From the NCBI GenBank assembly GCA_051866635.1, contig JBJDXJ010000063.1, positions 9,867 to 73,866 of the forward strand: a DNA stretch of 64,000 bases, written 5' to 3'. The position numbers and the translations under genes are program-made. The notes beneath the pieces were generated by a model. It saw only the letters and a list, made by a program, of their open reading frames with translations. It was not told where the DNA came from and ran no database searches. The stretch is from Clostridia bacterium (GTDB lineage: Bacteria > Bacillota > Clostridia > UMGS1883). Positions 12,456 to 50,807 of this stretch are shown one piece after another. The number at the start of each line of letters is the position of its first letter. The first letter of the stretch is position 1.

Positions 12456-13103
12456 CTATAAATTTTCAGAAATTCCATTAAAATCTTTTATATAAAAATC
12501 TGCTACACTTTCCATTTCCTTTTTAAATGCATCCCAGCGTTTATCCCATACGCAAACGACCTTTGCACCTGTGCTTTTAGCTGTTTTTACCGCCTCGGGC
12601 ACATCTTCAAAAATAACACATTCCTTTATATTAACCCCAAGCCTTTCCGCCGCTAAGTTATACACATGTGGGTCACGCTTACTTATACCCGTTTCATCAG
12701 TTGATATAAATACGTCAAATAAGTCATATACACCAGTGTTTTTCATTGCCGCTTCGTAAAGGGTTTTACTTGAACTTGTTGCCAGTGCAATTTTCACACC
12801 TTGCCCTTTCAGCTTTTCCATGTACTCTTTTGCACCGCTTCTTAATTTAATGTTATTTGCATATTCAAAAAGTGCTCTTTCGTCCCATTCACGCATTAAA
12901 TCTTCTACTGTATCTTTAAGATTAAACCGCTTTATGGAATACTTTGCACATTCTTCACCTGTCATAGAGCTTATTATGTGTGCATAATCATCGGGAACAC
13001 CGATGCCCCTTGCCTGAAGAAAGTCCACATCAATTTTATCCCACACGGAAATGGAATCAAGTATTGTTCCGTCCATATCAAATATGGCACCTTTAAATCT
13101 CAT
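12456..13103 (-). CDS. HAD-superfamily hydrolase (beta-phosphoglucomutase-like subfamily IA)
   Basis: IFDMDGTILDS motif I, plus conserved S/T and K/D motifs. Overlaps pepD by 4 bp. Confidence 0.85.
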   Translation of the reverse strand: MRFKGAIFDMDGTILDSISVWDKIDVDFLQARGIGVPDDYAHIISSMTGEECAKYSIKRFNLKDTVEDLMREWDERALFEYANNIKLRSGAKEYMEKLKGQGVKIALATSSSKTLYEAAMKNTGVYDLFDVFISTDETGISKRDPHVYNLAAERLGVNIKECVIFEDVPEAVKTAKSTGAKVVCVWDKRWDAFKKEMESVADFYIKDFNGISENL

Positions 13104-32022: not shown

Positions 32023-32064
32023 ATATGTCCTCCTTTTCTTTTAGAATTTTCATTATGCGAAAAC

Positions 32065-34119: not shown

Positions 34120-34154
34120 ATAAAATTCCTCTCGCTCTATTGTTGTATACTCAA

Positions 34155-37995: not shown

Positions 37996-38019
37996 ATTTA
38001 GATACTGGAGGAAATAGAG

Positions 38020-38601
38020 ATGAATTTTGGATTTGCATTAATTATCAACAGCGTACTTTTAGGCATAGGACTTGCAATGGATGCCTTTTCGGTATCTCTC
38101 GCAAACGGACTTAACGAACCTATGATGCGTAAGCGTAAAATGTGTGCCATTGCGGGCACCTTCGGTTTTTTTCAGGCGTTGATGCCTATGATAGGTTGGT
38201 TCTGTATCCATACCATAGTCCAATATTTTCAGACCTTTGAAAAGTTTATTCCATGGATTGCACTTATACTTTTAGGTTATATAGGCACAAGTATGCTTTA
38301 TGAGGGCATAAAGGGCGATGAAGCGTGCGAAAAGCCAAGAGTAGGCATCTTAGCCCTTCTTGTACAGGGCATCGCAACAAGCATTGACGCTCTTTCCGTA
38401 GGCTTTACAATTGCCGATTATGATTTGTTTTCTGCACTTTTTGCATCACTTATTATTGCCCTTGTCACCTTCATAATATGTATGGTAGGTCTCTTAATAG
38501 GAAGAAAAATGGGTACCTGTCTTGCAAATAAGGCAAGCATTTTAGGCGGTGTAATTCTAATCTTTATAGGTATTGAAATATTCATATCGAATATATTCTG
38601 A
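38020..38601 (+). CDS. mntP: Manganese efflux pump MntP
   Basis: 193 aa, six transmembrane helices, conserved LAMDAFSVS and ...SIDALSVGF motifs. Confidence 0.85.
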   Translation: MNFGFALIINSVLLGIGLAMDAFSVSLANGLNEPMMRKRKMCAIAGTFGFFQALMPMIGWFCIHTIVQYFQTFEKFIPWIALILLGYIGTSMLYEGIKGDEACEKPRVGILALLVQGIATSIDALSVGFTIADYDLFSALFASLIIALVTFIICMVGLLIGRKMGTCLANKASILGGVILIFIGIEIFISNIF

Positions 38602-38614
38602 TAACGAGAAAAAT

Positions 38615-38777
38615 GGGCTGTAAAAAAGTCAACACTGAGATAACAAAAAGACCATTTCGGGACTGTCCCAACAAAACCTCGCAAGGTTTCTTTGGCAAAT
38701 TGTCTCCCAATTTGCCATAAGGGGGACTGTCCCAAATGGTCTTAATTTATTTCTTTAGAGACTTTTTTTACAGCCTC
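38615..38777. repeat. Copy C of the structured intergenic repeat
   Basis: GGGCTGTAAAAAAGTC...GACTTTTTTTACAGCC terminal inverted repeats with the same core as copies A and B. The track ORF 38418..38735 across it is spurious. Confidence 0.85.
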
Positions 38778-38822
38778 TTTTTGTGTAAAGTATTTACGAG
38801 ACAGATGATATATTAGAAATTA

Positions 38823-38858
38823 AAAAGGTTACGGTTTTGATTTTCCGTAACCTTTTTA
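38823..38858. terminator. Bidirectional hairpin terminator between mntP region and small zinc-ribbon gene
   Basis: Perfect 11-bp stem AAAGGTTACGG/CCGTAACCTTT with A/T runs on both sides. Confidence 0.6.
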
Positions 38859-38860
38859 AA

Positions 38861-39034
38861 TTACTGTGCAGGTTTTACTGCATTTGCTCCACATGAAGGG
38901 CAAAGATTATCTGCTCTATACACCTTATCAGGATATTTCTTTGCTCTTAAACAATGAATGCACCATGTAGAACCACACTTACTACAGCGGAACATATTTG
39001 CTCCCGAAGTTTTACATAAAGGACAATATGCCAT
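38861..39034 (-). CDS. Small zinc-ribbon protein (4x CxxC)
   Basis: MAYCPLCK...CSKCG...CIHC...CPSCG, 57 aa. AGAGGTG RBS 6 nt upstream. The track's 39052 start lies upstream of the RBS. Confidence 0.55.
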   Translation of the reverse strand: MAYCPLCKTSGANMFRCSKCGSTWCIHCLRAKKYPDKVYRADNLCPSCGANAVKPAQ

Positions 39035-39221
39035 AAAAATCACCTCTTGCATTTTATTATTATAACGCTGATAACAGTAATTATTTTAACATTGGCATTT
39101 TTTCTGCAACAATATCACTAAAATATTTCGCTACAACATCTTTCTGTTATTATTTTTATTATCTCGTTTCTACAATTTCTAACGAAAATTCACACAGTGC
39201 AGCATTGAGCTGCGTTTCTAA

Positions 39222-39698
39222 TTATTCTGCTTCGGCTTGTGTAAAATCACCATTTATCGTGCATGAATCAGTATTTATTTCTTGCGTAATATGCGGAGCA
39301 AAAATGACGTTATCATCTATCGTAATCTGAATATAATTATTGGGGATTGATATTTGCGAAACTTCGTATGTGGCTTGTTTGAATTTGTCTTGTCCTTGTT
39401 TTGTGAAATTCAATTTGATGTAATAACTATCGCTTTCATCTTGTCCTGCACTTACCGCACTTATATCATTTCCTGTTAGCAGAATATTATTTTTATAATC
39501 CGTAAATTTAAGAGCCTTATCGGAAAAATTCAACATTTCCGCCATCTGTGTAATATTGTCCTGCATGGGTAATGTAACTTCAATTTTATCATCACCTTTT
39601 ATTTCTGTCTTCGCATTGACAAATCCTAAGTTTTTCAGATAATCCATATGTTTTTCTTTCGCTGTTTGTATATCATTTTGGGGATTGTCGGAATGCAA
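39222..39698 (-). CDS. Orphan SecD-head (P1 domain)-like protein, no signal peptide, no RBS; possible frameshifted fragment
   Basis: Similarity to the SecD periplasmic head (…IEVTLP…, …VIFAPHITQEI..GDFTQAEAE). Starts 19 nt after the stop of the upstream lipoprotein gene, in a different frame, with no Shine-Dalgarno. Confidence 0.35.
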   Translation of the reverse strand: MHSDNPQNDIQTAKEKHMDYLKNLGFVNAKTEIKGDDKIEVTLPMQDNITQMAEMLNFSDKALKFTDYKNNILLTGNDISAVSAGQDESDSYYIKLNFTKQGQDKFKQATYEVSQISIPNNYIQITIDDNVIFAPHITQEINTDSCTINGDFTQAEAE

Positions 39699-39716
39699 CT
39701 TATAAACAATAGTAGT

Positions 39717-40532
39717 TCATGGTTTAGTTTTCGTATTTTGTAACAATTCCTTTTTGACATCTTCCAAACTATTATAAGTTCCAACCTCTTTTAAATCACT
39801 ATCAACGACAGCCCAAACCGTTTTTGATACATAAGGCGGTCCATATATTGCCGCTATTCTTGATAATGTATTTTGGTCTAAACTTGACCTTACAATATCA
39901 TAGTGACTCTCTGCCCATAACGAACTCCAATTATAAACCATTTCAGAAGATTGCGTTGTATAATATATAGGTACTGCATTGTTTTCTTCAAAAAGAACAG
40001 TAACATCATTATTGGATTCTATGTTGGGAAAAATTTTCATAGTTGAATTGCTTATAATATTTTTGGCTTTTTCAGTTGATATAATTCCGTTTGTTCCTGT
40101 TATTTCACGCAAATATTCTTCTGCATATTCTTTGTTTTCAAGGGCATTTACACCATATTGTTCTATGTATTTTTTAAATATAGCAATACTTTTAATGTTT
40201 GTATCTTTGTCACTATTCCATATTTCCTGCTGGACAACATTAAGGGGTGTATATCCAAATATCGGAACGACAAGTTTTTTTGTTTCTGAATTTACAATAA
40301 CAAAACCATAACAATCATCGATGTTTACTAAAACTAATTTATTGTTATCGCTTCTATCTAAGCCTTGTGTATCATTTTTCAAATCAAGAATTGTCTCAAT
40401 TTTACTTGATTCAAACTCATAACCATTCTCGTTGAGTATTTCTCTCAATCTTCTGTCAGACAGGTTATTTCCGCAAGCAGATAAACAAATAACTGTTAAA
40501 ATTGCCGTCAGATACATTACAATTTTTTTCAT
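39717..40532 (-). CDS. Lipoprotein of unknown function
   Basis: MKKIVMYLTAILTVICLSAC lipobox with GGAGGG RBS. The track's upstream extension to 40607 is unlikely. Ends 2 bp after the TIR gene stop. Confidence 0.55.
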   Translation of the reverse strand: MKKIVMYLTAILTVICLSACGNNLSDRRLREILNENGYEFESSKIETILDLKNDTQGLDRSDNNKLVLVNIDDCYGFVIVNSETKKLVVPIFGYTPLNVVQQEIWNSDKDTNIKSIAIFKKYIEQYGVNALENKEYAEEYLREITGTNGIISTEKAKNIISNSTMKIFPNIESNNDVTVLFEENNAVPIYYTTQSSEMVYNWSSLWAESHYDIVRSSLDQNTLSRIAAIYGPPYVSKTVWAVVDSDLKEVGTYNSLEDVKKELLQNTKTKP

Positions 40533-40608
40533 TTCATTTTCCCTCCAATTTTCATACTTTGAAAAATATATCTGTGTGTATAACCGATTATTATCTTTAT
40601 AAATCAAA

Positions 40609-42402
40609 TTACTTCTTAGGCTTATACCTGTTAATTAAATCGGAAATATAACTTAGTGACTGCATATTCAAGGATAAATCTATAGATTTACAAACTTTTT
40701 TTACGTCCAATTCAGTTAATGCCATATTCGTAAGGTTCAATGTTGTATCTTTCGTAATAGCATTTAGAATTAGTTTGGTATTTTTATCCAATTCTCTATT
40801 TCCGCTTTCCTCTTCAGCCAATATCATTTTTGCTTTTTGCTTTGCTATAATTGTATTATACTCTGAATACAATAATATTACAGGCATAAGAAATTCTGCA
40901 ACTATGGCAAGAAAAAATAATAACAAAACAAACTGCGGTGTCCCATTACGCCTATTTGCTATAATATTCCAAGAAACAAACAAAACGGGAATACATATAG
41001 CTTCGGTAATTACAAATTTTTTTAGCATAGCTTTTTTTGCCATATCTTTCAAGGCAAAATAATCGTTTTCAAGTTTTGTAAATTTTTGATGTAATGCTAA
41101 TTCGGACTGTTCTTTTTTAGCCTTTTCCTCTTGCTCTTTTGCCAATTTTTCTTCGGCAATTTTTTTATATTTAGCCTGTGCCGTTTCGCAATAGTTAATC
41201 AAAACCGGCTTAAAATTATCATCAGCAAATCGTAACGCATTTTGATAACTCATTGATTTACTATAATCAACTGCTCTGTTTGCAAGGTTTTCCTCTTTGT
41301 TAACTTTAATTTCAATCATTAGTTTTCCAAGATATGCACGAGCATTTTCCGGCTCGTGGTTTAACACTTGCTCTAAAAGCTCATCGGCTTTTTGCCATTC
41401 CGCAGCTTCAATAAGTATAAATGCTCTTTTCAATAGAGGCTCGGATTGAAAAACTTCCGTTTTATTGACAACATTAACATTTGGTTGTGCCGTTTCCTTT
41501 TGCAGTACCTTTTTTATTCCTCTTATCAAATCCTGAACAAATCCGATTTTGCTCATATCCTGACTTTGAAACATTGAAATCTCGTCCGGTAAATCATATG
41601 CGTCCATATCACGATAGCAAGGAATAATCATTTTTGACTTGTCACGTTTTGCCAAATCCAAAAATCTTGCCCATTCATTTTTAACCCAAATTGCATTAAA
41701 ATATTCTTTGCTTGTACCGACAACGAGCATTACCTTTGCGGAATTTAGGGCAGAAAATATGTACGGCTCATATTCCGTTCCGAGTTTGTCCTCCAAGGTT
41801 ATTCTGCTGAAAAATACCTTGTAACCCTCGTTAGTAAGCTGATAGTAAATATCTTGTGCAAGAGTTGAGTCGATTGTTCGTTTACCGCTGTTATCCGTTT
41901 CTTTATAGCATATGAAAATGTCATAGGGAGCTTCTTTAGAGGCTATCGACAATATATTTTTTTGTATTGCGGAAATTGCTTCGGCTTCCTGCTTATATAA
42001 GCTTTGAGCCTGATAATCGTCCGAATATTCAACAGCGGCTTTATAGTCCAGATCAGACAATATAGATTCATTCTGCACTCTGTGGCAGGTAGGCACTCGT
42101 TTATGCGTTTTCGGGTCCTCAACATATTCGATACCATACCTTGAAAGAACACATCCCCAGTATGCTTCTGCATTCCTATTATCCTCTGTTAAAATGCTTT
42201 CATAAGCCGAAAGAGCCTTATCAAACTCGTTTTGCAGTCTGAAATGGTTTGCTCTGTCAAACAAATTCAGTATTCGTTCATCATTAACATTCGGCAGCGT
42301 CATTGTACTTCCGCAACTGTCGCATACACCGACTTTCTGATTTTCGGTAATCTCAATATTACCTCCGCACATTTTACATTTTAATATTGCCATCTTTACC
42401 AC
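40609..42402 (-). CDS. Zinc-ribbon / TPR-like / TIR-domain protein with C-terminal transmembrane helices
   Basis: N-terminal CKMCG..CDSCG ribbon. TIR motifs YDIFICYKETD (betaA), KVFFS, and AIWVKNEWARFL (alphaC W..E with candidate catalytic Glu). After a coiled-coil there are 2-3 hydrophobic helices (ICIPVLFVSWNIIA, VLLLFFLAIVAEFLMPVILL). Confidence 0.7.
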   Translation of the reverse strand: MVKMAILKCKMCGGNIEITENQKVGVCDSCGSTMTLPNVNDERILNLFDRANHFRLQNEFDKALSAYESILTEDNRNAEAYWGCVLSRYGIEYVEDPKTHKRVPTCHRVQNESILSDLDYKAAVEYSDDYQAQSLYKQEAEAISAIQKNILSIASKEAPYDIFICYKETDNSGKRTIDSTLAQDIYYQLTNEGYKVFFSRITLEDKLGTEYEPYIFSALNSAKVMLVVGTSKEYFNAIWVKNEWARFLDLAKRDKSKMIIPCYRDMDAYDLPDEISMFQSQDMSKIGFVQDLIRGIKKVLQKETAQPNVNVVNKTEVFQSEPLLKRAFILIEAAEWQKADELLEQVLNHEPENARAYLGKLMIEIKVNKEENLANRAVDYSKSMSYQNALRFADDNFKPVLINYCETAQAKYKKIAEEKLAKEQEEKAKKEQSELALHQKFTKLENDYFALKDMAKKAMLKKFVITEAICIPVLFVSWNIIANRRNGTPQFVLLLFFLAIVAEFLMPVILLYSEYNTIIAKQKAKMILAEEESGNRELDKNTKLILNAITKDTTLNLTNMALTELDVKKVCKSIDLSLNMQSLSYISDLINRYKPKK

Positions 42403-43439
42403 ATCCGGTCCTCATACGATGTATTTTCAATTCCTTGTTCTCTTAATTTTTTCACCATTTTATCAAGTTTTCCACGCCAGAATTTTTTAAACCAAATGGT
42501 ATTACCAAACCATTTTACAATTGTTGGGCTTATTGCATAATATGTTCTGATAAACGCTCTGCCATACCAAGTTTCAGCTAATATATAGTCACGATAACGG
42601 CGAAGCGTCCAAACCTCAGGACAGTCATAAGAGCCATATACACAGGTAGCAACATAACAGCCACCGCTACTGAACGTCAATCCTTGATATGACGGGTTGT
42701 ATTTCTTTATTTTGTCCACATATGAAAGAATTTCCTTCTTTGATTCTTCACTGGTAAATTTGTAATTAATGCGTATATCAATTCCTTTTTCCCACGCTTT
42801 TGCACACATTGTACCGACTTCGGGGTGTTCAATATATCGTTTTTCAAGTTGATCTCCCAACTCAAATAATAATAAATATAAAGCCTTGCAGTTTTCTACA
42901 AAATCAGACTCAACACCACGTGTATCTTTAAATCTTTGGTAGTGATTTTGAGCATTGATGTATAATAATTGGGCAAAGTCTTCTGTTTTTGTGTATACCT
43001 GCACAAATGCGTTTGATTCCTCTTCGGATGTCGTATAATTGTCTATAAGATCAAAAACACTATTCAAGCAATTGGATAATTTATATGCCGCAGATGATAT
43101 TTCTCCTATTTTACATTGAGCAACATGAAAGTAAGTTGTATAATATGCTGCTTCCCAGCTGTTTGGATCCTCAACCAAAATCATATCATAATATTTTTCA
43201 GCTTGTGCATCATCATTGTTATCTTTTGCACGTCTTGCTACAGTGTATAAATTATTTAATCTTTCTAATTTATCTGCCGAAAAATTTGTATCAAATTTTT
43301 TTGCTTTTGATTTAACACTAACATTTCCGTGTGATACGGCATGCTCGTCTTTAAAAACCTCGCCACATTGCCGGCATATATATACATTGCCGTCTTTATC
43401 CAACTCGCCACCACAGGATTTGCATTCTAAATATGACAT
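42396..43439 (-). CDS. Zinc-ribbon / TPR-like protein with conserved Cys-rich C-terminal module (paralogous N-terminus to the TIR protein)
   Basis: CKSCGG..CRQCG ribbon. YYDMILVEDPNSWEAAYY parallels AYESILTEDNRNAEAYWG of the TIR protein. C-terminal GGCYVATCVYGSYDCPEVWTLRRYRD. 7-bp overlap with the TIR gene start. Confidence 0.55.
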   Translation of the reverse strand: MSYLECKSCGGELDKDGNVYICRQCGEVFKDEHAVSHGNVSVKSKAKKFDTNFSADKLERLNNLYTVARRAKDNNDDAQAEKYYDMILVEDPNSWEAAYYTTYFHVAQCKIGEISSAAYKLSNCLNSVFDLIDNYTTSEEESNAFVQVYTKTEDFAQLLYINAQNHYQRFKDTRGVESDFVENCKALYLLLFELGDQLEKRYIEHPEVGTMCAKAWEKGIDIRINYKFTSEESKKEILSYVDKIKKYNPSYQGLTFSSGGCYVATCVYGSYDCPEVWTLRRYRDYILAETWYGRAFIRTYYAISPTIVKWFGNTIWFKKFWRGKLDKMVKKLREQGIENTSYEDRMW

Positions 43440-43503
43440 TTCAAAAATACTCTCCTTCTATGTATGATTTTTACTTAGTTTACTATTCCATAGATTTCCT
43501 AAC

Positions 43504-43944
43504 TTAATTTGAATATGTTGTCTTTAATTCAACCTTTTTGGTTTCTTCACAATTTGGGCAGTAAAAACCACCAGTAAAGCTACCGGGGGTGGTTACAGTA
43601 GTACTTGGTTCTGTATATCCGCAACTATCACATTTCTTTTTATAAACTACTTTGTTTTCATGATTATCTTCAATAATTATTGCATTAGAAATTGCAACTG
43701 TAGTACTGGATTGTTTATTTTCTTGTACTTGATTGTAATTTCCGTAATAATTATTTGTAGATGTTGAATTTGTACTTTTTTTATCAGTAGACTCATTCGG
43801 TGTTTCTACATAATTATCAACTGATTCGCTATATTGCTGATTTGAATCATCTGTGTTTTGATATGTTGAATCGCCTTGTGGTGTGCAAGCTGTTACACAA
43901 ATCATCGTAAAAATCACTAAAATGTAAGATATATGTTTTTGCAT
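43504..43944 (-). CDS. Lipoprotein with low-complexity linker and C-terminal zinc ribbon
   Basis: Lipobox ICVTAC, S/T/N-rich linker, CDSCG...CPNC. Confidence 0.5.
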   Translation of the reverse strand: MQKHISYILVIFTMICVTACTPQGDSTYQNTDDSNQQYSESVDNYVETPNESTDKKSTNSTSTNNYYGNYNQVQENKQSSTTVAISNAIIIEDNHENKVVYKKKCDSCGYTEPSTTVTTPGSFTGGFYCPNCEETKKVELKTTYSN

Positions 43945-43948
43945 TTAA

Positions 43949-44386
43949 TTACCTCCAATAATTTTCCTTTTCTTTTATAAATTCTTTATGTTTTTGTTCC
44001 GCCTTGCTGTCAACTTCATTGATATATTCACTGCCTGCCGTTATAGCGATTATTCTTATTATAAATACCGCTAAAACTGCAATATGTATTACAAGCGTCC
44101 ATAATACATACAAAGAAATCAAGCAAGCAATTACCGAAAAAAACACACTGATTATTGAATATATTACAGCTGTATAAACAAACGCATGACCTTGGGGGGT
44201 TTTTGTAGTTTCTCTCTTACCGAACACACAGAGGCTCAATGCTATACCTATTATTGCAATCAAGGTAAATATATACGAAACAATAAATGTGTCCGTAATT
44301 GGAACAACTATAAACAATAGAGATACAACTACCGCCATAATAATGGCTGATATAATAATTTTTGTGTTATTATTCATTTGTACCAC
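43949..44386 (-). CDS. Small polytopic membrane protein (4 TM)
   Basis: 145 aa, four hydrophobic helices. Overlaps the SPFH gene by 17 bp (translational coupling). Confidence 0.5.
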   Translation of the reverse strand: MVQMNNNTKIIISAIIMAVVVSLLFIVVPITDTFIVSYIFTLIAIIGIALSLCVFGKRETTKTPQGHAFVYTAVIYSIISVFFSVIACLISLYVLWTLVIHIAVLAVFIIRIIAITAGSEYINEVDSKAEQKHKEFIKEKENYWR

Positions 44387-45623
44387 CTTCTATTCTATAC
44401 CCACATTCTAAGCAGAATTTAGCACCATTAGGTACTTCCTTTCCGCAGTTGGAACAAATAAGTTGTAATTTACCGCCACACTCCATACAGAATTTACCTT
44501 TTGGTGTTTTGCTTCCGCATTGAGGACATATCATTTCATTGTCTGAAAGCTGTTCAATCTTCGTTCCGCACTCGAGACAGAATTTTGCATTTTCGGGTAA
44601 GGTATTACCGCACTTCGGACATATTGAAGTTGATTTTGATGTATTCATATTTACTGCATTTCCTATGCTGTCATTTACAACTCCGCCGACAGCACTGCCA
44701 ACGCTTGTCATGACTCCAAGCCCTATACCCAAGCCAGCCATATTTCCTCCGCCTTCATTTTTAGCAAAGCCTTCGGCAACATCAAAACCTCGTTCCTGTT
44801 GATATGTATAGCCTTCAATCTGACGTTTTGCAGCCATGCCTTCCGCTTCTAAAATCATTTTCTGCTTTTCGGTTTCTTGCTTAATAATATCAACATTTTG
44901 TTGCAATTTTGCTTCTGCAATATCTGCGTACTGTCTGAAATGCAAACTCTTAAATCGCTTATATGTACTGTCATCTTCGGGTTTTACAATGGTCGTTACA
45001 AAGAAATGCACCAACGAAACACCGTATTCCTCAAAATCAGGAATAAGTAATTTATGTAAGCTTTCCGAAATTTCATTAAGTTTTTCATCAATTTGAAAAA
45101 TGTTTATTCCGTTATTCCGGATATATGTTGACAAATACGTTTTGAACCTTATCATAAGAAAAGCTCTAAACTTTTGTGTCAAGCCTGCTTGTGTAAGTAC
45201 ATTTTCCGTGCCGACTATTTTTACCAAGAGTTTTTTTGCATCGGAAACTCTCAAACTCATTTCGCCGCTTGCACCTATTTGAAGCGGAAAATTGTATGTG
45301 GGTTCCATATATTCAATTTTACTGTCCGTCCCCCACCGAATGTTCATTTGCTCGGTTTTATTTATAAAGTATACCTCGCAATGAAATGGTGTTTTATCAT
45401 TAAAAGGCTTATTAAAAAACTTTCTGATAAGCGGAATATTTTGAGTTTCTAATGTATGTCTGCCTGCTTCAAAACTATCAAGAAGTTGTCCGTTCATGTA
45501 GAAAACCGCTTCTTGCGATTCGTGAACGATAAGTTGTGTTGTTGTATTAAAGTCTTCACAAGGGTGTTTCCATACAAAGGTTGAGTTATCACCCTCATAC
45601 TTAATTACATCTGCTATTTGCAC
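44370..45623 (-). CDS. SPFH/band-7-like domain protein with three tandem C-terminal double zinc ribbons
   Basis: N-terminal about 300 aa resemble the SPFH-domain family. C-terminus has three CP(K/Q)CG...C.ECG repeats. Confidence 0.55.
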   Translation of the reverse strand: MQIADVIKYEGDNSTFVWKHPCEDFNTTTQLIVHESQEAVFYMNGQLLDSFEAGRHTLETQNIPLIRKFFNKPFNDKTPFHCEVYFINKTEQMNIRWGTDSKIEYMEPTYNFPLQIGASGEMSLRVSDAKKLLVKIVGTENVLTQAGLTQKFRAFLMIRFKTYLSTYIRNNGINIFQIDEKLNEISESLHKLLIPDFEEYGVSLVHFFVTTIVKPEDDSTYKRFKSLHFRQYADIAEAKLQQNVDIIKQETEKQKMILEAEGMAAKRQIEGYTYQQERGFDVAEGFAKNEGGGNMAGLGIGLGVMTSVGSAVGGVVNDSIGNAVNMNTSKSTSICPKCGNTLPENAKFCLECGTKIEQLSDNEMICPQCGSKTPKGKFCMECGGKLQLICSNCGKEVPNGAKFCLECGYRIEGGTNE

Positions 45624-45756
45624 GCTATACTCATATCCTTTCCAGATCGTTTACTAAAAGTGTACTGTAAGAGAGCTCTTTATATTTGCAGTCTTGATAT
45701 ATTTTGCAATTGCTTTTGCTATTTTATTGAGTTAACATTTGGCTCATACGCATCTT

Positions 45757-45800
45757 CTTTAAATAGCTCATTTCACCTAAACAAATAGCTCATTTCACCT
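45757..45800. repeat. Perfect 22-bp tandem duplication (AAATAGCTCATTTCACCTAAAC x2) spanning the stop codon of gene 45773..46819
   Basis: Two identical adjacent 22-mers. The first copy encodes the last residues and TGA stop of the minus-strand gene. Confidence 0.8.
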
Positions 45801-46819
45801 AAACCGCTTTGCAATTTTATTCCCAATATACCTTCATCTTCATACATGTAAAAATAACTACCATTGTAGTAGAGTGAATAAGCATAAATACCATCTATTT
45901 CATCTATGTACTCCCATGTTCCGCCCCGAACAATTCTACCAAAATCATCAATCTCATCTAATAAATCTTTAACTTCCAAACTGTCCCGAAATGTACCATT
46001 ATAAGCATTATAAGACGGCATGCTGACAGACATATGTCCATCACCTTCAAATGTGTATTGAACACCGGTAGCTTTTTTCCATGTGCCGATAATTGCCACT
46101 TTGCTTTCAATACTTTTTGCGAGTTTTTTCGCTTCACTTTTTGTTTTTTCATCAGCATTAACATTCTTCTCTATGTCTTTAAGACATTCGTCCGCAAAAA
46201 TATATCCACCATCTTCTATAAATTTTTTTGCCGAATTAAGATTTTTTATTGCCATCTCTCGTTGAGCTTCTACAAAATCATCAACGTACTTACCATTCGG
46301 GTAGTAGTCCATGTACACATCATAAAATCTATTAATTTCATATTCATCATCATTACAATTCAACAATTCCGTATAGAGGTCTTCTTCTACATCTTCTTTT
46401 AATGCATTAATCTTTTTTATATATCGTTTTTTATTGGAATAGGTTTCACTAAATTCTTCAATATCTTCCAATGTATTACGGTAATCGTCATGTTCTTTTT
46501 TTACCGGATATTGATATTCATTGACAATTTCCTTATACAATTTAGCTTCAGGATTAGGAATTAAAATCATGAGAATTACAAAGGCTACCGAAATAACAGC
46601 TATAATAGGCAGGATTTTTTTCTTAAGCGGTTTGACATTTCTGGAATAATCTAATTCATAGGAACTTTCCTCTTGTTCTGTTACTTCTGCATTTACAGTT
46701 ATGGTTTCTTCCTTTTTTATGTTCTTCTCTTGCATTTTGTCATCCGATTCATCAGCCTGACATTTTTCACAAAAGCCATTCTCCATAAATTTTCCGCACT
46801 TAGGACAAATACTTGACAT
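45773..46819 (-). CDS. Zinc-ribbon / single-TM protein with extracytoplasmic domain of unknown function
   Basis: N-terminal CPKCG...CEKC, acidic linker, transmembrane helix (ILPIIAVISVAFVILMILI), about 250 aa external domain. Confidence 0.5.
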   Translation of the reverse strand: MSSICPKCGKFMENGFCEKCQADESDDKMQEKNIKKEETITVNAEVTEQEESSYELDYSRNVKPLKKKILPIIAVISVAFVILMILIPNPEAKLYKEIVNEYQYPVKKEHDDYRNTLEDIEEFSETYSNKKRYIKKINALKEDVEEDLYTELLNCNDDEYEINRFYDVYMDYYPNGKYVDDFVEAQREMAIKNLNSAKKFIEDGGYIFADECLKDIEKNVNADEKTKSEAKKLAKSIESKVAIIGTWKKATGVQYTFEGDGHMSVSMPSYNAYNGTFRDSLEVKDLLDEIDDFGRIVRGGTWEYIDEIDGIYAYSLYYNGSYFYMYEDEGILGIKLQSGLGEMSYLFR

Positions 46820-47103
46820 ATTAACATCTCCCTCTGATTATTTATTCTTTATTTATTTTTGCATCCGTCCGTTTTCATAAGAATTGTGCTTACAAGGACA
46901 CATGCGAAGCACCAAAGAAATACCGGCACATATCACCAAAACAGCAGTAATACTATCACACAAATTTGTCTTGGCAGTTTATTACATATTATCACACAAC
47001 CTAACAAATTGCAACTATTTTTTGATATAATTTTTAACTATATTTTTGAATGTTTATTTAATTGGCAAAATGGGATAGAATTATAGCAATAGGGGGTTAT
47101 GCT

Positions 47104-47277
47104 ATGGATTTTATTATAAAAAAGACTACAAGTTCCAACCGCACGGTCAGAATGCCTGACGAATTAATCGAAACTATCAGCACCATTGCCAACGAAAAGG
47201 GCATTTCCTTCAATCAGCTTGTTATTCAGTGCTGTGAATATGCGTTGGACCACCTTAAGGACGAGAAAACAGAATAA
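47104..47277 (+). CDS. Ribbon-helix-helix (CopG/Arc-like) DNA-binding protein
   Basis: RTVRMPDELIETISTIANEKGISFNQLV: beta-strand then two helices. GGGGG RBS. The track's 47062 start is probably an extension. Confidence 0.55.
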   Translation: MDFIIKKTTSSNRTVRMPDELIETISTIANEKGISFNQLVIQCCEYALDHLKDEKTE

Positions 47278-47304
47278 AACGTCTTTTTTGTTTTATTATA
47301 GTCA

Positions 47305-47362
47305 AAAGCACAGAAAAAGTCCCGGACAAATTGTCCAAGACTTTTCTGTGCTTTTTATTTTA
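47305..47362. terminator. Hairpin terminator between convergent RHH gene and Ser/Thr kinase gene
   Basis: AAAGCACAGAAAAAGTC...GACTTTTCTGTGCTTT stem followed by TTTTATTTT. Confidence 0.55.
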
Positions 47363-48832
47363 ATATACAGGTACTAATCTATTCTCCTCCAATGCATAGC
47401 CTGTTATATCGCCCAAATCATACCATTCAACGTTAAACTTTTTTGTATATGCAGTCATATAGAAGGAATACTCTTTTGAAAACATATCTCCTTCGCAGAG
47501 ATAAAAGCCTGTTTCCTCATCGTATTTTATACACCATGCAATACAATAATTAAAATTATTGTAAAACTGATGCTCGATAACCCCGATGCATCCTTCGTTA
47601 AGCCCTATCAACAGCTCGGGCACATCGTCATAGTCCATATCACAACAGATTATATCGGCGTTTTTTCTGTCTGGCGGATTAAAAAGGCTGTAATCGTACT
47701 GCCCATTGTAGGCAAATTCACCTGTGAAATCGTGTCCGTAGTCATCATTAAGATAAACCTTAAGTTTGCCGTCTGAAAGGGTTATGTCGGCATTGACCAA
47801 AGTATTGTTTTCTCCCAGCTTTATTTTGCCTTTTTTATTTCCGTCCTCTAAAAACAGCAGATGGTCCCAGGGCTTGTACATTGAAAAAATCGCCACATGA
47901 TTATATGTAGGGTATTTGCTGTACTCCTCCATTTTGCTGTCAGATGCAAATCCGGTAAAATATGTATCTTCATCTAATGTGATTTCCGCTTCTGTATCTT
48001 TTTCATCTATTTCGGCAGTTATGCTATTGGAAGGTTTCTCCATATAGAGGGCATTATCCGTTGGGTTTGTGGGCTGTTTTTTGTCAAAGGCGGCGTTACT
48101 TTTTCCATTTATCAGACAAATGCAGGCAACAAGTGCCAAAAGGGCAGATGCGGCACATATTGCAGGAGGTATTATACGGCAAAATATTATTGCACGATGT
48201 AAGGCTTTAACGTTTTTATACCGCTGGGACGGGTCAAGCCGCTTGCATTTTTCCGATATTTTGTGCAAACAACCCTTTATACCTAAGTAATCCAATACAG
48301 CCTGTATTGTTGCACCAAAGGCATATATATCTGTTTTAAAATCTGTGGGCATCATGCCGTACTGTTCAATAGGGGCATAACCGAAGGTGCCCATTTTTTC
48401 GGTATCTTGCCGTATTTCAGACCTGTAAATGCGGGCAATATCGTAATCAATCAACCATATGTGATTTGACGCATCAACAAGTATATTGTCGGGCTTAATA
48501 TCTCTGTGGATAATATTTTGACTGTGTAGGACTGCTAATGCATCTGTCAATTGTAGCATAATGGAGCGTATTTCTTTTTTTGTGAACTTACGACCTTCCT
48601 CCATAAGTGTTGATAAGGACTTGCCTTCAATATATTCCTCAACAACAACTGTTTTATCGCCAAATTCCACAGAGAAAATCTTTGGTATGTTGGGGCTTGA
48701 AATTTTTTGAAGGTTTTTGTAAATTTCACGCTTGTCCCCTTCTATTTCCCTTTTGAGATATTTTTTGCCGTTATCTGTACAGAGAACAATTTTCTGCCTG
48801 TCATTTTGTTTTAAAATCTCACATTCTTTCAA
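47360..48832 (-). CDS. Hanks-type serine/threonine protein kinase with TM helix and extracellular domain
   Basis: HRDIKPDNILV catalytic loop, DYDIARIY (DFG-equivalent), GTFGYAPIE activation segment. Transmembrane segment (IIPPAICAASALLALVACICLI). No PASTA repeats. Confidence 0.85.
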   Translation of the reverse strand: MKECEILKQNDRQKIVLCTDNGKKYLKREIEGDKREIYKNLQKISSPNIPKIFSVEFGDKTVVVEEYIEGKSLSTLMEEGRKFTKKEIRSIMLQLTDALAVLHSQNIIHRDIKPDNILVDASNHIWLIDYDIARIYRSEIRQDTEKMGTFGYAPIEQYGMMPTDFKTDIYAFGATIQAVLDYLGIKGCLHKISEKCKRLDPSQRYKNVKALHRAIIFCRIIPPAICAASALLALVACICLINGKSNAAFDKKQPTNPTDNALYMEKPSNSITAEIDEKDTEAEITLDEDTYFTGFASDSKMEEYSKYPTYNHVAIFSMYKPWDHLLFLEDGNKKGKIKLGENNTLVNADITLSDGKLKVYLNDDYGHDFTGEFAYNGQYDYSLFNPPDRKNADIICCDMDYDDVPELLIGLNEGCIGVIEHQFYNNFNYCIAWCIKYDEETGFYLCEGDMFSKEYSFYMTAYTKKFNVEWYDLGDITGYALEENRLVPVY

Positions 48833-48903
48833 TCAAATCCCTCCTTGCAAAATGTTACAATTTGTATTATCATAATTATATTAAATTTAAGGAGTGTTTG
48901 TCA

Positions 48904-49326
48904 ATGGCTTCAATTACGGAAGAACTGTTAACCGAATTAAAAAACGCCTCTGATTTACAAAGCTTTTTTAAAAAGCACGAAAATGACTTTATCGAAAAGA
49001 GCCTTGATGTTTATTTAAACGAGTTTTTAGCCGCAAAAGGGATAAGCATTTCGGACATTATAAAATCATCCGGTGCAGGGGAATATGCTTACAAAATATT
49101 TAAAGGGGAAAGAAAGCCCTCGAGAGATATTCTCATATCAATAGCATTCGGTATGGGGCTTTCTTTGCAGGAAACACAACTTATGCTACGCATTGCAAAA
49201 TTTGCTGTTTTAGACCCCAGGGATAAACGTGACGGAGTTATAATATATGCATTAACCCACAATATGACAGTATTTGAGGCTGACGATGTTTTAGACGAAA
49301 ACAATTTCACCACAATTAACAGTTAA
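48904..49326 (+). CDS. Helix-turn-helix domain protein (XRE-like)
   Basis: ISISDIIKSSGAGEYAYKIFKGERKPSRDILISIAFGMGLS HTH. AAGGAG RBS. The track start 48862 lies upstream of the RBS. Confidence 0.6.
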   Translation: MASITEELLTELKNASDLQSFFKKHENDFIEKSLDVYLNEFLAAKGISISDIIKSSGAGEYAYKIFKGERKPSRDILISIAFGMGLSLQETQLMLRIAKFAVLDPRDKRDGVIIYALTHNMTVFEADDVLDENNFTTINS

Positions 49327-49395
49327 CTTAAGAAGGGGTTGGATTTAATAAAACTTTCCTTATCTAAGTGCATTTCTTAATGCTCAACTTTTTTT

Positions 49396-49438
49396 ATAAT
49401 AATGGGGTCAGGCTTGTCACCTGACCCCATTATTACAG
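49396..49438. terminator. 15-bp perfect inverted repeat (AATAATGGGGTCAGG...CCTGACCCCATTATT), putative bidirectional terminator
   Basis: Lies between convergent genes 48904..49326 (+) and 49467..50807 (-). The T-run precedes rather than follows it on the plus strand. Confidence 0.45.
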
Positions 49439-49466
49439 AACGGTTTTTCTTCGTATAAATACACTT

Positions 49467-50807
49467 TTAATTTTTCAAACTCTGCAAAGGTGCCGGAATT
49501 CTGCCGCCACGGGCAATAAATTCACTGCAGGACTTATTGTTAACACTCATAACGGGACCTGAACCTAAAAGTCCTCCGAATTCAACCACATCCCCAACCT
49601 TCTTACCCTTGGCAGGGATAACTCTTACGGCTGTTGTTTTACTGTTAACCATACCGATTGCGGCTTCATCTGCAATAATACCGGAAATTGTTTCTGCCGT
49701 TGTGTCCCCCGGCACTGCAATCATATCAAGACCTACAGAACACACACAAGTCATTGCTTCAAGTTTTTCAAGAGTTAAGCACCCTGACTTTACAGCGGAA
49801 ATCATACCTGCATCTTCGCTTACGGGAATAAATGCACCCGACAAACCGCCAACGTAACTGGATGCCATAACACCGCCCTTTTTAACGGCATCGTTAAGCA
49901 GAGCAAGTGCGGCAGTAGTGCCGTGTGTACCGCACTGTTCCAAGCCCATTTCCTCAAGAATGTATGCAACAGAGTCACCTACCGCAGGGGTGGGAGCCAA
50001 TGAAAGGTCCACAATACCGAAGGGGACATTCAATCTCTTTGATGCTTCTACAGCCACCATCTGACCCATTCTTGTTATTTTGAAGGCCGTTTTTTTCACA
50101 GTGTCAGCCACAACGCCGAAGGGCTGACCCTTTACCTTTTCCAAAGCACATTTTACAACGCCGGGACCTGATACGCCCACATTGATTACACATTCCCCTT
50201 CACCTGTGCCGTGGAAAGCACCTGCCATAAAGGGATTATCTTCAACTGCATTTGCAAACACAACAAGCTTTGCACAAGCCATATCATCCAATTCTGAGGC
50301 TTTTTTTATAACCTGACCCATCTGTCTTACAGCATCCATATTGATGCCTGCTTTTGTGCTTGCCACATTAACAGATGAACACATTTTACTTGTTTCTGCC
50401 AAGGCTTCGGGAATAGAGTCCACAAACAAGCGGTCAGAATCAGTATAGCCCTTTGCCACCAGTGCGGAGTAGCCGCCTATAAAGTTTACGCCTGTAGTTT
50501 CTGCCGCACGGTCAAGTGCCTTTGCAAACTCCACATAATGACCACAGCTTGATGCCACATGTGATATGGGAGTTACGGAAATACGCTTATTAATAATGGG
50601 AATACCGAATTCCTTTTCAATATCCACACCTGTTTTTACAAGATTTTCTGCGTATTTTGTTATTTTATCATACACTTTCACCGTTGCTTTTTTGTAGTCC
50701 TCACAGGCACAATCCAAAAGTGATATACCCATGGTGATGGTGCGGACATCAAGATGCTCGGCATTTATCATGTTCAGTGTTTCATAAATTTCAAGATTAT
50801 TTATCAT
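49467..50807 (-). CDS. UPF0210 (PFL-like, DUF711) family protein
   Basis: [33 protein letters not shown] characteristic N-terminus, about 446 aa, paired with the UPF0237 ACT protein upstream. Confidence 0.85.

Follow-up and report, generated by a model that had tools for sequence, protein, structure and literature searches.

An SPFH protein, a four-TM protein and zinc-ribbon-headed TIR proteins encoded side by side in gut Clostridia: a candidate membrane-linked sensing or defence system

Which of the genes around a bacterial TIR protein belong together, and what might they do? The question is raised by a locus in the 64,000-nucleotide stretch of DNA from a Clostridia bacterium that was analysed here (the window), in which a first-pass annotation had seen a co-oriented nine-gene island built around a TIR-domain protein and an SPFH protein. 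The nine minus-strand open reading frames were all found and span positions 38861-46819. They are listed below from G1 to G9, following the two genes upstream of them.

47360..48832, minus strand: Ser/Thr kinase with a TM helix and a C-terminal domain (Pkinase E=3e-28)
47062..47277, plus strand: RHH protein (Arc/CopG-like), 71 aa, divergently transcribed (Pfam and PHROG matches)
45773..46819, minus strand: G1, zinc ribbon (CPKCG...CEKC), one TM helix, C-terminal domain of ~250 aa; weak DZR match only
44370..45623, minus strand: G2, soluble SPFH protein with Band_7_1, Gly-rich low-complexity linker and three C-terminal zinc ribbons; core component
43949..44386, minus strand: G3, four-TM protein of 145 aa with a short charged C-terminal helix; core component
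43504..43944, minus strand: G4, lipoprotein ORF with lipobox VTAC and C-terminal CxxC...CxxC
42396..43439, minus strand: G5, zinc-ribbon head, TPR-like helical repeat, CFI-box C-terminal domain (CFI_box_CTERM)
40609..42402, minus strand: G6, zinc-ribbon head, TPR, TIR, TPR, long coiled-coil helix, TM hairpin, C-terminal helices (TIR_2, AF2)
41500..41925, minus strand: TIR domain of G6, residues about 160-301, with the WVKNEW motif inside (checked by translation)
39717..40532, minus strand: G7, lipoprotein of 271 aa from the called start (ORF 39717-40607)
39222..39698, minus strand: G8, stand-alone SecD/F P1-head-like domain (SecDF_P1_head E=4.8e-15)
38861..39052, minus strand: G9, 63 aa with four CxxC pairs, an occasional accessory gene (homologues in L006/L007)

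The domain assignments for the two central proteins could be confirmed. G2 matches Band_7_1 (E=2.8e-38) as well as Zn_Ribbon_1/DZR, and G6 matches TIR_2 with 46.1 bits (cut-off 28). In Foldseek the AF2 model of G6 (pLDDT 87) matches TIR structures with a probability of 1.0, the best PDB matches being the plant L7 TIR (7vu8) and AbTir (7uxu), and the NADase TIRs AbTir, RUN1, SARM1, and SPARTA are among its fold matches. Glu243 of the WxxxE motif, whose codon is located at 41674-41676 according to the translation, aligns with the glutamate in the WCLMEL motif of the flax L6 TIR, which we take to be the catalytic one. Among 124 paralogues the motif W239-V-K-N-E243-W is conserved to at least 95%, and in 73 database homologues it varies hardly or not at all. 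The TIR domain of G6 is apparently an active enzyme domain, and G6 is predicted, in line with its modelled fold, to be the enzymatic component of the module. G5 matches CFI_box_CTERM with 71.2 bits (cut-off 40), and its AF2 model (pLDDT 86.7) comprises the zinc ribbon, the helical repeat, and a three-helix CFI box, with PDB matches of the TPR type. G5 and G6 have homologous heads, with 28% identity across ~100 aa (E=7e-6), and G5, which has 7398 database homologues, is a second class of zinc-ribbon-headed partner. G3 did not match any family in Pfam, NCBIfam, or PADLOC and is probably a membrane anchor.

TIR domains can also be protein-interaction modules, and bacterial TIR proteins of the BtpA/TcpB type have been proposed to interfere with host TLR signalling. 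Most of the source organisms are gut or rumen bacteria, and the TIR domain could be a non-enzymatic adaptor, or a secreted mimic directed against the host. However, a signal peptide is missing and both the zinc ribbon and the TIR domain come before the TM segments, which makes the TIR domain cytoplasmic, the catalytic-type glutamate and its tryptophan partner are near-invariant, and the neighbourhoods do not contain secretion-system genes. A role as adaptor or mimic is thus very unlikely.

To find the genes that recur together, two sets of loci were compared, 79 loci from different species that were found via the TIR protein and seven SPFH loci that were reached from SPFH or G5 homologues. In 56 of the 79 TIR loci a G2 homologue (31-84% identity) is encoded within a few kb of the TIR gene, in every case on the same strand, and in 54 of these 56 it is followed by a four-TM gene, which has a short form in 10 loci and a long form (~239 aa) in 45. 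The seven SPFH loci all have the order SPFH, four-TM, zinc-ribbon-headed gene, and the body behind the common head is TPR-TIR in three, a G5-like helical repeat in two (L083 and L087), and YdjG-like in two (L081 and L082). The YdjG-like assignment is a lead only, being based on an alignment over ~260 residues (E=3e-6) to a presumed YdjG sequence. The zinc-ribbon/TPR head is shared and modular, as had been suggested. A TIR domain is the body most often found on it, but because the SPFH and four-TM genes are also paired with non-TIR third genes (L081-L083 and L087) the TIR domain is optional. SPFH proteins and adjacent TIR N-termini co-diverge (Mantel r=0.42, reached by none of 999 permutations), and the linkage is kept from Oscillospiraceae to Lachnospiraceae and Erysipelotrichales while the other neighbours all change. 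This co-occurrence is far beyond chance, and the SPFH-TIR linkage turned out to be conserved across Clostridia, the check that the first-pass annotation had proposed.

It might still be that the TIR proteins are stand-alone sensor-effectors, that the adjacency to SPFH and four-TM genes reflects co-regulation or co-transfer of an island without a physical complex, and that the zinc-ribbon head is a built-in part of each protein, serving its oligomerisation or regulation. SPFH is absent from ~8 TIR-family loci having more than 8.5 kb on both sides, a G5-family gene also stands alone in L086, and roughly one in three TIR paralogues lacks a TM helix and is predicted to be cytosolic. The loci without SPFH and the lone G5-like genes mean that docking to SPFH is not obligatory for every paralogue. 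However, the strict gene order with three unrelated bodies on one head and the persistence of the linkage across these families speak against independence, as do the reading frames, which overlap or abut (17 bp overlap between G2 and G3, 7 bp between G5 and G6, 4 bp gap between G3 and G4, and 1 nt between the G6 and G7 ORFs as listed). We regard such an independence as improbable.

The nine genes as a whole do not form the recurring unit. G1, G7, and G8 have no homologues in any of the 79 TIR loci, the sole homologue of G4 is found in L004 (51% identity), and only L006 and L007 have G9 homologues (64-65% identity), in both cases directly 3' of the TIR gene. L081 carries a Cys-rich lipoprotein analogous to G4, and a 423-aa ORF of this locus is weakly matched by G7 (27% identity, E=3e-8), which is possibly a separately encoded ectodomain partner. 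The SecD-head-like call for G8 holds at the Pfam level, its NCBIfam SecD/SecDF matches being far under their cut-offs, and neither a signal peptide nor a TM helix was seen on reading its sequence. G1, G4, G7, and G8 are lineage-specific, and the recurring unit consists of the SPFH, four-TM, and zinc-ribbon-headed genes together with an upstream RHH/HTH regulator. In the window the RHH protein (Pfam HicB/CopG_antitoxin/Arc, E about 5e-4; PHROG Arc-like repressor, 1.2e-6) is the likely regulator of the operon, and SPFH also has an RHH or HTH_XRE gene upstream of it in L004, L081, L083, and L085 and in 12 loci of cluster 12. The first-pass gene list did not include it.

The description as an accessory island was correct only in part. 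The nine-gene block deviates mildly in composition, with a GC content of 33.8% versus 37.2% in the window, which is nearly the lowest among 113 windows of the same size, and with a tetranucleotide distance ~2.4 SD over the mean. However, the window contains neither a tRNA nor an integrase nor a repeat boundary, and the kinase and a 154-aa protein (48862-49326) recur beside the SPFH module in L004 (50% and 62% identity, respectively) and L081 (45% and 62%). This common kinase/HTH flank indicates that the position has been inherited within the lineage of the window. Although the kinase gene is kept beside the operon in this lineage, it is transcribed separately, and a strong terminator-like hairpin (47314-47346, minus strand) is located between its gene and the operon. 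Overall, the first-pass interpretation holds for the domains, the linkage, and the modular head, but not for the nine-gene unit, and the island has mild compositional support only.

The TIR class is large and strongly diversified. The N-terminal 300 aa are found, at E<=1e-30, in 4008 clusters at 50% identity, which have residues 1-297 in common and total lengths of 405 to 1895 aa. The N-terminal 300-400 residues are conserved and the C-termini hypervariable, with tails containing RCC1 (35/120), DUF6273 (C-type-lectin-like, 27/120), or BspA-LRR (3/120) that are located either beyond the TM helix or in the cytosol. L001, the closest full-length TIR homologue, has a PASTA domain, up to four TIR paralogues are found in tandem arrays, and L018 contains a complete diversity-generating retroelement (DGR) cassette with the variable repeat within the DUF6273 tail. 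The C-termini carry ligand-binding repeat domains, and the variability of the class appears receptor-like. About half of the family is predicted to be single-pass membrane proteins that have a repeat or lectin sensor outside the cell and the TIR domain in the cytoplasm, similar to animal Toll-like receptors. However, the topology is opposite, with the TIR domain N-terminal, many members are cytosolic, the catalytic-type glutamate kept in the family suggests an enzyme rather than an adaptor, and common descent is unsupported beyond the TIR fold. The combination of an effector with a variable ligand-binding C-terminal domain, the prediction of both cytosolic and extracytoplasmic sensors, and the DGR target in L018 are reminiscent of the DGR C-type-lectin 'antigen sensors', which have TIR or peptidase effectors, are found in multicellular bacteria, and are organised around STAND or MoxR NTPases (PMC10907252; PMC7159879). 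In contrast, there is no NTPase here, the constant partner is the SPFH/four-TM pair, the hosts are mostly unicellular gut Clostridia, and G6 of the window does not have a variable domain.

The usual Thoeris and CBASS partners are absent, as had been noted, and no PADLOC model matches any of G1-G9. A TIR domain with catalytic-type glutamate, a multigene operon with TM proteins, and the location of some loci in defence islands are features common to the module and to Thoeris and other TIR antiphage systems. It differs by the absence of SIR2/SLOG, Macro, caspase-like, DUF2270, or other known effectors and of any match to the PADLOC TIR models, by the fusion of TIR to zinc ribbon, TPR, and variable sensor domains, and by the linkage to SPFH. 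In Rst_2TM_1TM_TIR, a three-gene TM/TM/TIR system of P2/P4 hotspots, a TIR protein is also encoded together with small TM proteins, but its PADLOC model does not match here, SPFH has not been reported from it, and it belongs to a different phylum and a satellite/prophage context. A census of TIR-based antiphage systems describes ThsB plus effector in 29 configurations and does not mention SPFH (bioRxiv 10.64898/2025.12.03.692087). Our literature search found no paper describing the module, in agreement with the earlier impression of an undescribed gene combination.

The SPFH component, in contrast, has a studied relative in the pspA-samGHI system, which makes envelope stress a serious alternative to antiphage defence. 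Judged from its sequence, G2 has the architecture of B. subtilis SamI/YdjI, which consists of SPFH, a low-complexity linker, and a zinc finger without TM helix and acts in membrane-stress sensing, PspA recruitment, and differentiation (PMC8581546; bioRxiv 10.64898/2026.02.06.704340), and which needs membrane partners, among them the zinc-ribbon TM protein SamG/YdjG (these two sources and 10.1101/2021.02.15.431232). The locus could be a SamGHI-like module serving envelope stress or membrane homeostasis and not antiviral, with the SPFH/four-TM platform monitoring membrane or cell wall, the zinc-ribbon-headed proteins being sensors and adaptors, PASTA, RCC1, or lectin ectodomains reading wall or environment, and the TIR domain tuning NAD+/ADPR metabolism or signalling physiologically. 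G2 and SamI share the Pfam family, the architecture, and the missing membrane anchor, and SamG opens with a zinc ribbon, the third genes of L081 and L082 being SamG-like by the provisional comparison above. G2 has >8000 database homologues, and SPFH proteins from many genomes are 70-86% identical, which resembles purifying selection for a physiological role more than the turnover of an arms race. In addition, many loci including those of the window, L080, L083, and L085 are situated among housekeeping genes, and both the PASTA domain of L001 and the recurrent Ser/Thr kinase neighbour would fit. However, none of eight gene-called neighbourhoods contains pspA, the SPFH gene comes first, the four-TM G3 is unlike SamH, which is presumably a TPM-domain protein, and the zinc-ribbon-headed partners carry TPR-TIR or helical/CFI-box bodies in tandem hypervariable arrays. 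To our knowledge, every bacterial TIR enzyme characterised to date is a toxin or has a role in defence. The tandem TIR arrays, with their hypervariable sensor domains and one target of a DGR, have features typical of a conflict system (PMC10907252). Recombinase and defence genes are over-represented in the flanks. Recombinases make up the most frequent families in the set of 146 nearest-neighbour ORFs (Phage_integrase 8, Resolvase 6), and HEPN, AbiEii-like AAA_21, Schlafen, AriA, type I and type IIG restriction enzymes, AbiLi, and PDC-S01 are also present. L082 is located directly after GmrSD inside a defence island, and upstream of L084 and L087 there is a small serine recombinase, a reported marker of defence loci (PMC13552941). 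Against a defence function, searches of phage, plasmid, and IMG/VR collections gave no match, and neither did PADLOC. A CBASS cyclase has been found conjugated to PspA with YdjI co-purifying (PMC11153139), which is a precedent for immune enzymes placed on Psp/YdjI machinery. A purely physiological function is thus possible, but we would hold it only tentatively.

We favour, with moderate confidence, a membrane-associated signalling or defence module on an SPFH platform, to which zinc-ribbon-headed sensor/effectors dock and whose output is NAD+ cleavage by the TIR domain; an antiphage function is plausible. G2 would oligomerise beneath the membrane as other SPFH proteins do, with G3 as its tether, G5 and G6 would dock onto this platform by their zinc-ribbon heads, and G1 and G9 may dock as well despite their ribbons of different type, with the upstream RHH gene presumably controlling expression of the operon. 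A cue would then alter the TIR-TIR packing and switch on NAD+ cleavage. As this cue, the platform could sense a disturbance of the membrane, or the variable C-terminal or partner domains could bind a ligand. G6 of the window, however, has only a TM hairpin and no ectodomain, so that sensing would have to come from the platform or from the lipoproteins G4 and G7. The output could be a signal derived from ADPR, or else NAD+ depletion that ends in abortive infection or stops growth. The module is conserved in hundreds of gut Clostridia and appears to be a new TIR system for sensing or defence that is linked to the membrane.

The locus looks like a variant that joins two known kinds of system, TIR systems and SamI-type SPFH modules, in a combination of which we found no description. 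Nine co-oriented minus-strand ORFs, named G1 to G9 in the order of transcription, lie between mntP and a Ser/Thr kinase gene, just where the first-pass annotation had placed them:

38020-38601, plus strand, mntP, flank on the downstream side of the nine-ORF block
38861-39052, minus strand, G9, 63-residue protein with four CxxC pairs
39222-39698, minus strand, G8, SecD-head-like protein
39717-40532, minus strand, G7, lipoprotein
40609-42402, minus strand, G6, zinc-ribbon/TPR/TIR protein
42396-43439, minus strand, G5, zinc-ribbon head, helical repeat and CFI box
43504-43944, minus strand, G4, lipoprotein
43949-44386, minus strand, G3, 145-residue protein with four TM helices
44370-45623, minus strand, G2, SPFH protein
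45773-46819, minus strand, G1, zinc-ribbon/TM protein
47062-47277, plus strand, RHH, small gene for a probable regulator, divergent from the operon
47360-48832, minus strand, Ser/Thr kinase gene, opposite flank of the block

The genes are tightly packed, with overlaps of 17 bp between G2 and G3 and of 7 bp between G5 and G6, a gap of 4 bp between G3 and G4, and abutting G6 and G7. Gene calling on an identical contig (L088) gave the same genes and a G7 start at 40532. Because L088 matches the window with 100% identity over 11,486 bp, it represents the same strain and was rejected as an independent sample. A strong terminator-like hairpin (47314-47346, minus strand) ends the kinase transcript, and the operon therefore begins after it. 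An Rfam scan of 38000-49500 gave no match, and a promoter scan was uninformative (50 sites found, 47 expected). In base composition the nine-gene block deviates mildly from its surroundings: its GC content is 33.8%, that of the window 37.2%, and its tetranucleotide distance exceeds the mean for windows of equal size by about 2.4 SD. Neither an integrase nor a tRNA nor a repeat boundary is present at the block, and the term accessory island was an overstatement. The other compositionally deviant part of the window (27859-35591, 31-35% GC) encodes three consecutive large SLH surface proteins with VWA/Big_2 and WG-repeat domains.

Profile searches bore out the domains that had been read from the sequence. 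G2 contains a Band_7_1 domain (E=2.8e-38, residues 25-217) followed by a Gly-rich linker (about 290-330) and zinc ribbons (335-411), and no TM helix is apparent on reading its sequence. G6 matches TIR_2 with 46.1 bits (cut-off 28) and has TPR matches on both sides of the TIR domain. The C-terminus of G5 (residues 261-329) is a CFI box (CFI_box_CTERM, NCBIfam NF041770; 71.2 bits, curated cut-off 40), and a protein identical to G5 carries the CFI-box name at NCBI. Searches against PHROGs returned zinc-ribbon and Arc-repressor matches only. G8 matches SecDF_P1_head. The P1-head domain of SecD/F is normally extracytoplasmic; in G8 it stands alone, and a signal peptide or TM helix was not seen. From its sequence G8 would be an orphan SecD-head domain lacking an export signal, and it may be a gene fragment or a recruited domain.

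Database searches with G6 yield more than 8000 homologues, which are 50-83% identical over the first approximately 400 residues and divergent at their C-termini. Scanning one genome per species for G6 resulted in 79 loci, chiefly from gut and rumen Clostridia (Oscillospiraceae, Acutalibacteraceae, Ruminococcaceae, Lachnospiraceae, Christensenellales), with a few in MAGs labelled Erysipelotrichales, Peptococcaceae, Petrotogaceae, Anaerolinea or Gastranaerophilaceae. Searched with the window proteins, 56 of the 79 loci encode a G2 homologue (31-84% identity), every one of them on the strand of the TIR gene, which confirms that TIR and SPFH genes co-occur in other genomes. Homologues of G3 were found by direct BLAST in 12 loci, and de novo clustering of all locus ORFs revealed a long form of G3 (about 239 residues, four TM helices and a helical tail) after the SPFH gene in 45 further loci. 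G5 or CFI-box matches are present in about ten of the 79 loci, G9 homologues in two and a G4 homologue in one, while the same search with G1, G7 and G8 found homologues in none (0/79). G4 and G7, both lipoproteins, and G1 and G9, both zinc-ribbon proteins, are lineage-specific additions to the module in the window. The proposal of an undescribed membrane-associated TIR system with modular heads largely holds, but its extent is smaller than the nine genes assumed. The recurring pattern is [RHH] (TIR)n SPFH 4TM (TIR)n, in which as many as four TIR paralogues stand in tandem. Of the 23 loci without an SPFH gene, most are truncated by the end of a contig; about eight extend for more than 8.5 kb to either side and are true solo TIR genes. 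The SPFH proteins and the N-termini of the neighbouring TIR proteins co-diverge (Mantel r=0.42, reached by 0 of 999 permutations). Outside the module the flanks are not conserved, except in L004 and L081, where, as in the window, the SPFH module is adjoined by the kinase (TM helix and C-terminal domain) and a divergent 154-residue protein (48862-49326). These two are a lineage-conserved neighbour pair set off from the operon by the hairpin. The kinase matches the PADLOC models mad6 and PD-T4-6 through its generic kinase domain only. In another locus (L080, 11736-13473), with otherwise housekeeping neighbours (BipA, HSP90, CarAB), the TIR gene is split into a zinc-ribbon/TPR/TIR ORF of 322 residues and a TPR/TM ORF of 251 residues, possibly a pseudogene or a sequencing frameshift.

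The same module is met when the search starts from the SPFH gene. For G2, too, there are more than 8000 homologues, the best 120 of which are 65-86% identical. All seven gene-called neighbourhoods, six reached via G2 homologues and one (L087) via a G5 homologue, contain, in this order, the SPFH gene, a membrane gene of 141-219 residues lacking a Pfam family, and a third gene. The third genes of L080-L085, those read, start with the same zinc-ribbon head (M-x-x-L-x-C-x-M-C-G ... C-x-x-C-G), and that of L087 is a full-length G5 homologue. The bodies behind the head fall into three classes:

TPR-TIR: L080, L084, L085
G5-like helical domain: L083, L087
Alpha/beta domain of about 280 residues, then TM helices: L081, L082

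The third gene of L083 shares 35% identity with G5 over 230 residues and has C-terminal TM helices in place of the CFI box. Pfam searches with the four-TM protein and with the third-gene bodies of L081, L082 and L083 gave no match. The head and the first TPR-like helices are also common to G5 and G6 (E=7e-6). Because this head is shared by G5 and G6 and by three classes of bodies, the modular head suggested for the two adjacent genes is real and more general than proposed. In this conserved triad, the pair of SPFH and four-TM proteins is constant, as is the interface-like head, and the TIR domain is the commonest of several bodies. The G5 family has 7398 database matches and is also found alone (L086). 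In three loci the CFI-box domain is fused to the C-terminus of a TIR protein (L023, 9015-10694; L016, 5700-7370; L068, 2082-3812), which is more evidence for domain shuffling among the zinc-ribbon-headed classes. A protein encoded between the four-TM and TIR genes of L003 (8739-10004) consists of a zinc-ribbon head, BspA-type LRRs and a CFI-box C-terminus. Thus, a TIR-less head protein can carry a sensor-type repeat.

Sequence searches with G6 against PDB chains gave marginal TIR and TPR matches only, so that a fold search was needed. The AlphaFold (AF2) model, built from 73 sequences (mean pLDDT 87), starts with a four-stranded zinc ribbon (6-35), TPR-like helices with a beta-hairpin, and the TIR domain (about 160-301), and continues with a disordered linker, a second TPR block (320-391), an 86-residue helix and C-terminal helices. 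By reading hydrophobic stretches, the long helix continues into a TM hairpin at about 462-510; G6 has no ectodomain. Foldseek groups the TIR domain with plant TIRs, AbTir, SARM1 and the SPARTA TIR (7vu8, 7uxu, 4c6r, 6o0w, SARM1 and SPARTA TIR at probability 1.0; target TM-score 0.5-0.7 for isolated TIR-domain chains). Together with the TIR_2 match above the cut-off, model and fold search confirm the TIR fold that the first-pass annotation had called. The G6 motif W239-V-K-N-E243-W aligns to WCLMEL of the flax L6 TIR domain, which contains the catalytic Glu. Both E243 and W239 are essentially invariant in the 73 homologues and at least 95% conserved in 124 paralogues. G6 thus has conserved catalytic-type residues, from which NAD+ cleavage is predicted.

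At E<=1e-30, an exhaustive HMMER search with residues 1-300 of G6 recovered 4008 proteins, each representing a 50%-identity cluster, and among the 150 matches listed the match begins within the first four residues in nearly all. Behind this constant part the tails are hypervariable, and the total lengths of the TIR-class proteins range from 405 to 1895 residues. Pfam searches on 120 tails identified RCC1 propellers (35), DUF6273 (27) and BspA-type LRRs (3), and also lipocalin-like domains and PASTA. In about half of the tails a single clear TM helix precedes the domain; about a third have none and are predicted to be cytosolic. CIDE-N matches in 14 TIR tails (best E about 1e-13) are probably spurious and driven by repeats: in the two proteins checked (L014, 49-3075; L030, 15604-18333) no single stretch passes alone, and the match in L014 lies inside an RCC1-like region. 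The C-type-lectin-like scaffold DUF6273 has been described in DGR targets (PMC10743442, PMC11792537). A complete DGR cassette is located at the 3' end of a zinc-ribbon/TPR/TIR gene in L018 (9968-14421):

12219-12335, VR, in the DUF6273 tail
12566-12997, ORF of 143 residues in the Avd position, by reading the sequence
13024-13140, TR, with adenine-specific mismatches to the VR
13387-14421, ORF of 344 residues with RT-like motifs, by reading the sequence

VR and TR differ at 19 positions, 89% of which are at A/T of one copy. A VR/TR pair together with RT and Avd, by which a DGR target was defined, was found in L018 only, and the window has no DGR. In the L018 gene, TIR and DUF6273 are encoded in different frames, which may be due to a frameshift or an assembly error.

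The genomic surroundings are mixed. Phage_integrase (8) and Resolvase (6) are the Pfam families met most often among 146 nearest-neighbour ORFs from 56 loci, accompanied by HEPN, AbiEii-like AAA_21, Schlafen, IstB and replication proteins, and PADLOC detected AriA, type I and type IIG restriction enzymes, AbiLi, PDC-S01 and others. The same flanks include the housekeeping genes DnaA, IMPDH, pyruvate kinase and PlsX, and in the window, L080, L083 and L085 the module is located among core genes. In L082 (240-11386) the triad of SPFH, four-TM and head genes begins 3 bp after a GmrSD gene and is surrounded by a run of SNF2/PLD helicase, AAA_23 (SMC-like), WYL and Fic genes, which is a typical defence island. 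In L084 (7221-12360) and L087 (4353-13066) a small serine recombinase (about 200 residues) is encoded directly upstream of the SPFH gene; such recombinases are reported markers of defence loci (PMC13552941). A GIY-YIG gene follows the TIR gene of L084. The MobA/MobL relaxase and large serine recombinase after the module of L087 suggest that this module is on a mobilisable element. Neither tblastn searches with G6 against phage and plasmid collections nor a scan of IMG/VR found a member. Overall, the genomic context is suggestive of a conflict function rather than decisive.

[quoted passage not shown] Two membrane proteins recruit it, SamH and the zinc-ribbon-containing SamG, and it is needed for PspA to be placed at the membrane (PMC8581546; 10.1101/2021.02.15.431232; bioRxiv 10.64898/2026.02.06.704340). 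G2 has the same architecture of a soluble Band_7_1 SPFH domain, low-complexity linker and C-terminal zinc fingers. For the comparison, provisional YdjG, YdjH and YdjI sequences were used, whose termini agree with the primers printed in PMC8581546, the check covering the termini only. As leads only, this YdjI aligns end-to-end with G2 (E=2.5e-16), and this YdjG aligns over about 260 residues with the third gene of L082 (E=3e-6), its body aligning only with the third genes of L081 and L082. G5 and G6, as possible counterparts of SamG, carry zinc ribbons at their starts, and G6 is anchored in the membrane. The conserved partner G3 is a four-TM protein without family assignment and would differ from SamH/YdjH, a TPM-domain protein. 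A PspA-type family is absent from the eight gene-called neighbourhoods (L080-L085, L087, L088), from the 25 commonest of 145 flank families and from the conserved locus clusters. Since G3 looks unlike YdjH and no pspA gene is linked in these neighbourhoods, full equivalence to YdjGHI was rejected, and the module is SamGHI-like in part and not a SamGHI member.

Among TIR defence systems, Thoeris differs by its cognate effector (ThsA SIR2-SLOG, Macro-TM or others). As the first-pass annotation had stated, no such effector and no named system is recognisable here: Pfam, NCBIfam and PADLOC searches gave no Thoeris-type effector in G1-G9, none is among the conserved neighbours of the 79 loci, and PADLOC has no model match on the nine proteins. 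ThsB-type and PADLOC TIR models compared with G6 gave 0 families at E<=0.1. SPFH, flotillin and zinc all go unmentioned in a 2025 census that covers 29 TIR configurations (bioRxiv 10.64898/2025.12.03.692087), and a description of the module was found neither in the literature on SPFH, flotillin or stomatin with TIR or defence nor in that on CFI-box and receptor-like bacterial TIR proteins. There are precedents for single aspects. Multicellular bacteria have TIR effectors with DGR-diversified lectin sensors (PMC10907252). PspA holds a CBASS cyclase, YdjI co-purifies, and phage SPP1 induces the pspA-ydjGHI operon (PMC11153139). The lectin-sensor systems and the PspA-bound cyclase make an immune reading plausible.

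In the mechanism that we infer, G2 would form an SPFH oligomer under the membrane, tethered by G3, onto which the zinc-ribbon heads would dock. Membrane perturbation or ligand binding would then shift the packing of the TIR domains and switch on NAD+ cleavage, with NAD+ depletion or an ADPR-derived signal as output, and the RHH protein would control the operon. It is a tentative and rather doubtful proposition that gut Clostridia possess a large, unnamed family of pattern-recognition-like TIR receptors, in which a conserved cytoplasmic zinc-ribbon/TPR/TIR enzyme module is combined with a hypervariable sensor (RCC1, LRR, C-type lectin), extracellular or cytosolic and sometimes DGR-diversified, on an SPFH/four-TM scaffold gating TIR oligomerisation. 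If true, TIR immunity would gain a new class that works by the logic of Toll-like receptors, and a bacterial SPFH protein would for the first time have a part in immunity. Conservation from bacteria to humans is a property of TIR enzymes as well as of SPFH scaffolds, and we found no report that connects the two functionally. SPFH proteins would, if the module is real, have a concrete client, an enzyme activated by oligomerisation that they cluster or restrain, and a very large family, with thousands of sequence clusters in gut and rumen Clostridia, would join the catalogue of TIR systems. That three unrelated bodies share one zinc-ribbon head points towards a docking code open to direct testing. 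The hypervariable and at times DGR-targeted sensor domains suggest receptor diversification in abundant bacteria of the human gut, which bears on phage-host dynamics in the microbiome.
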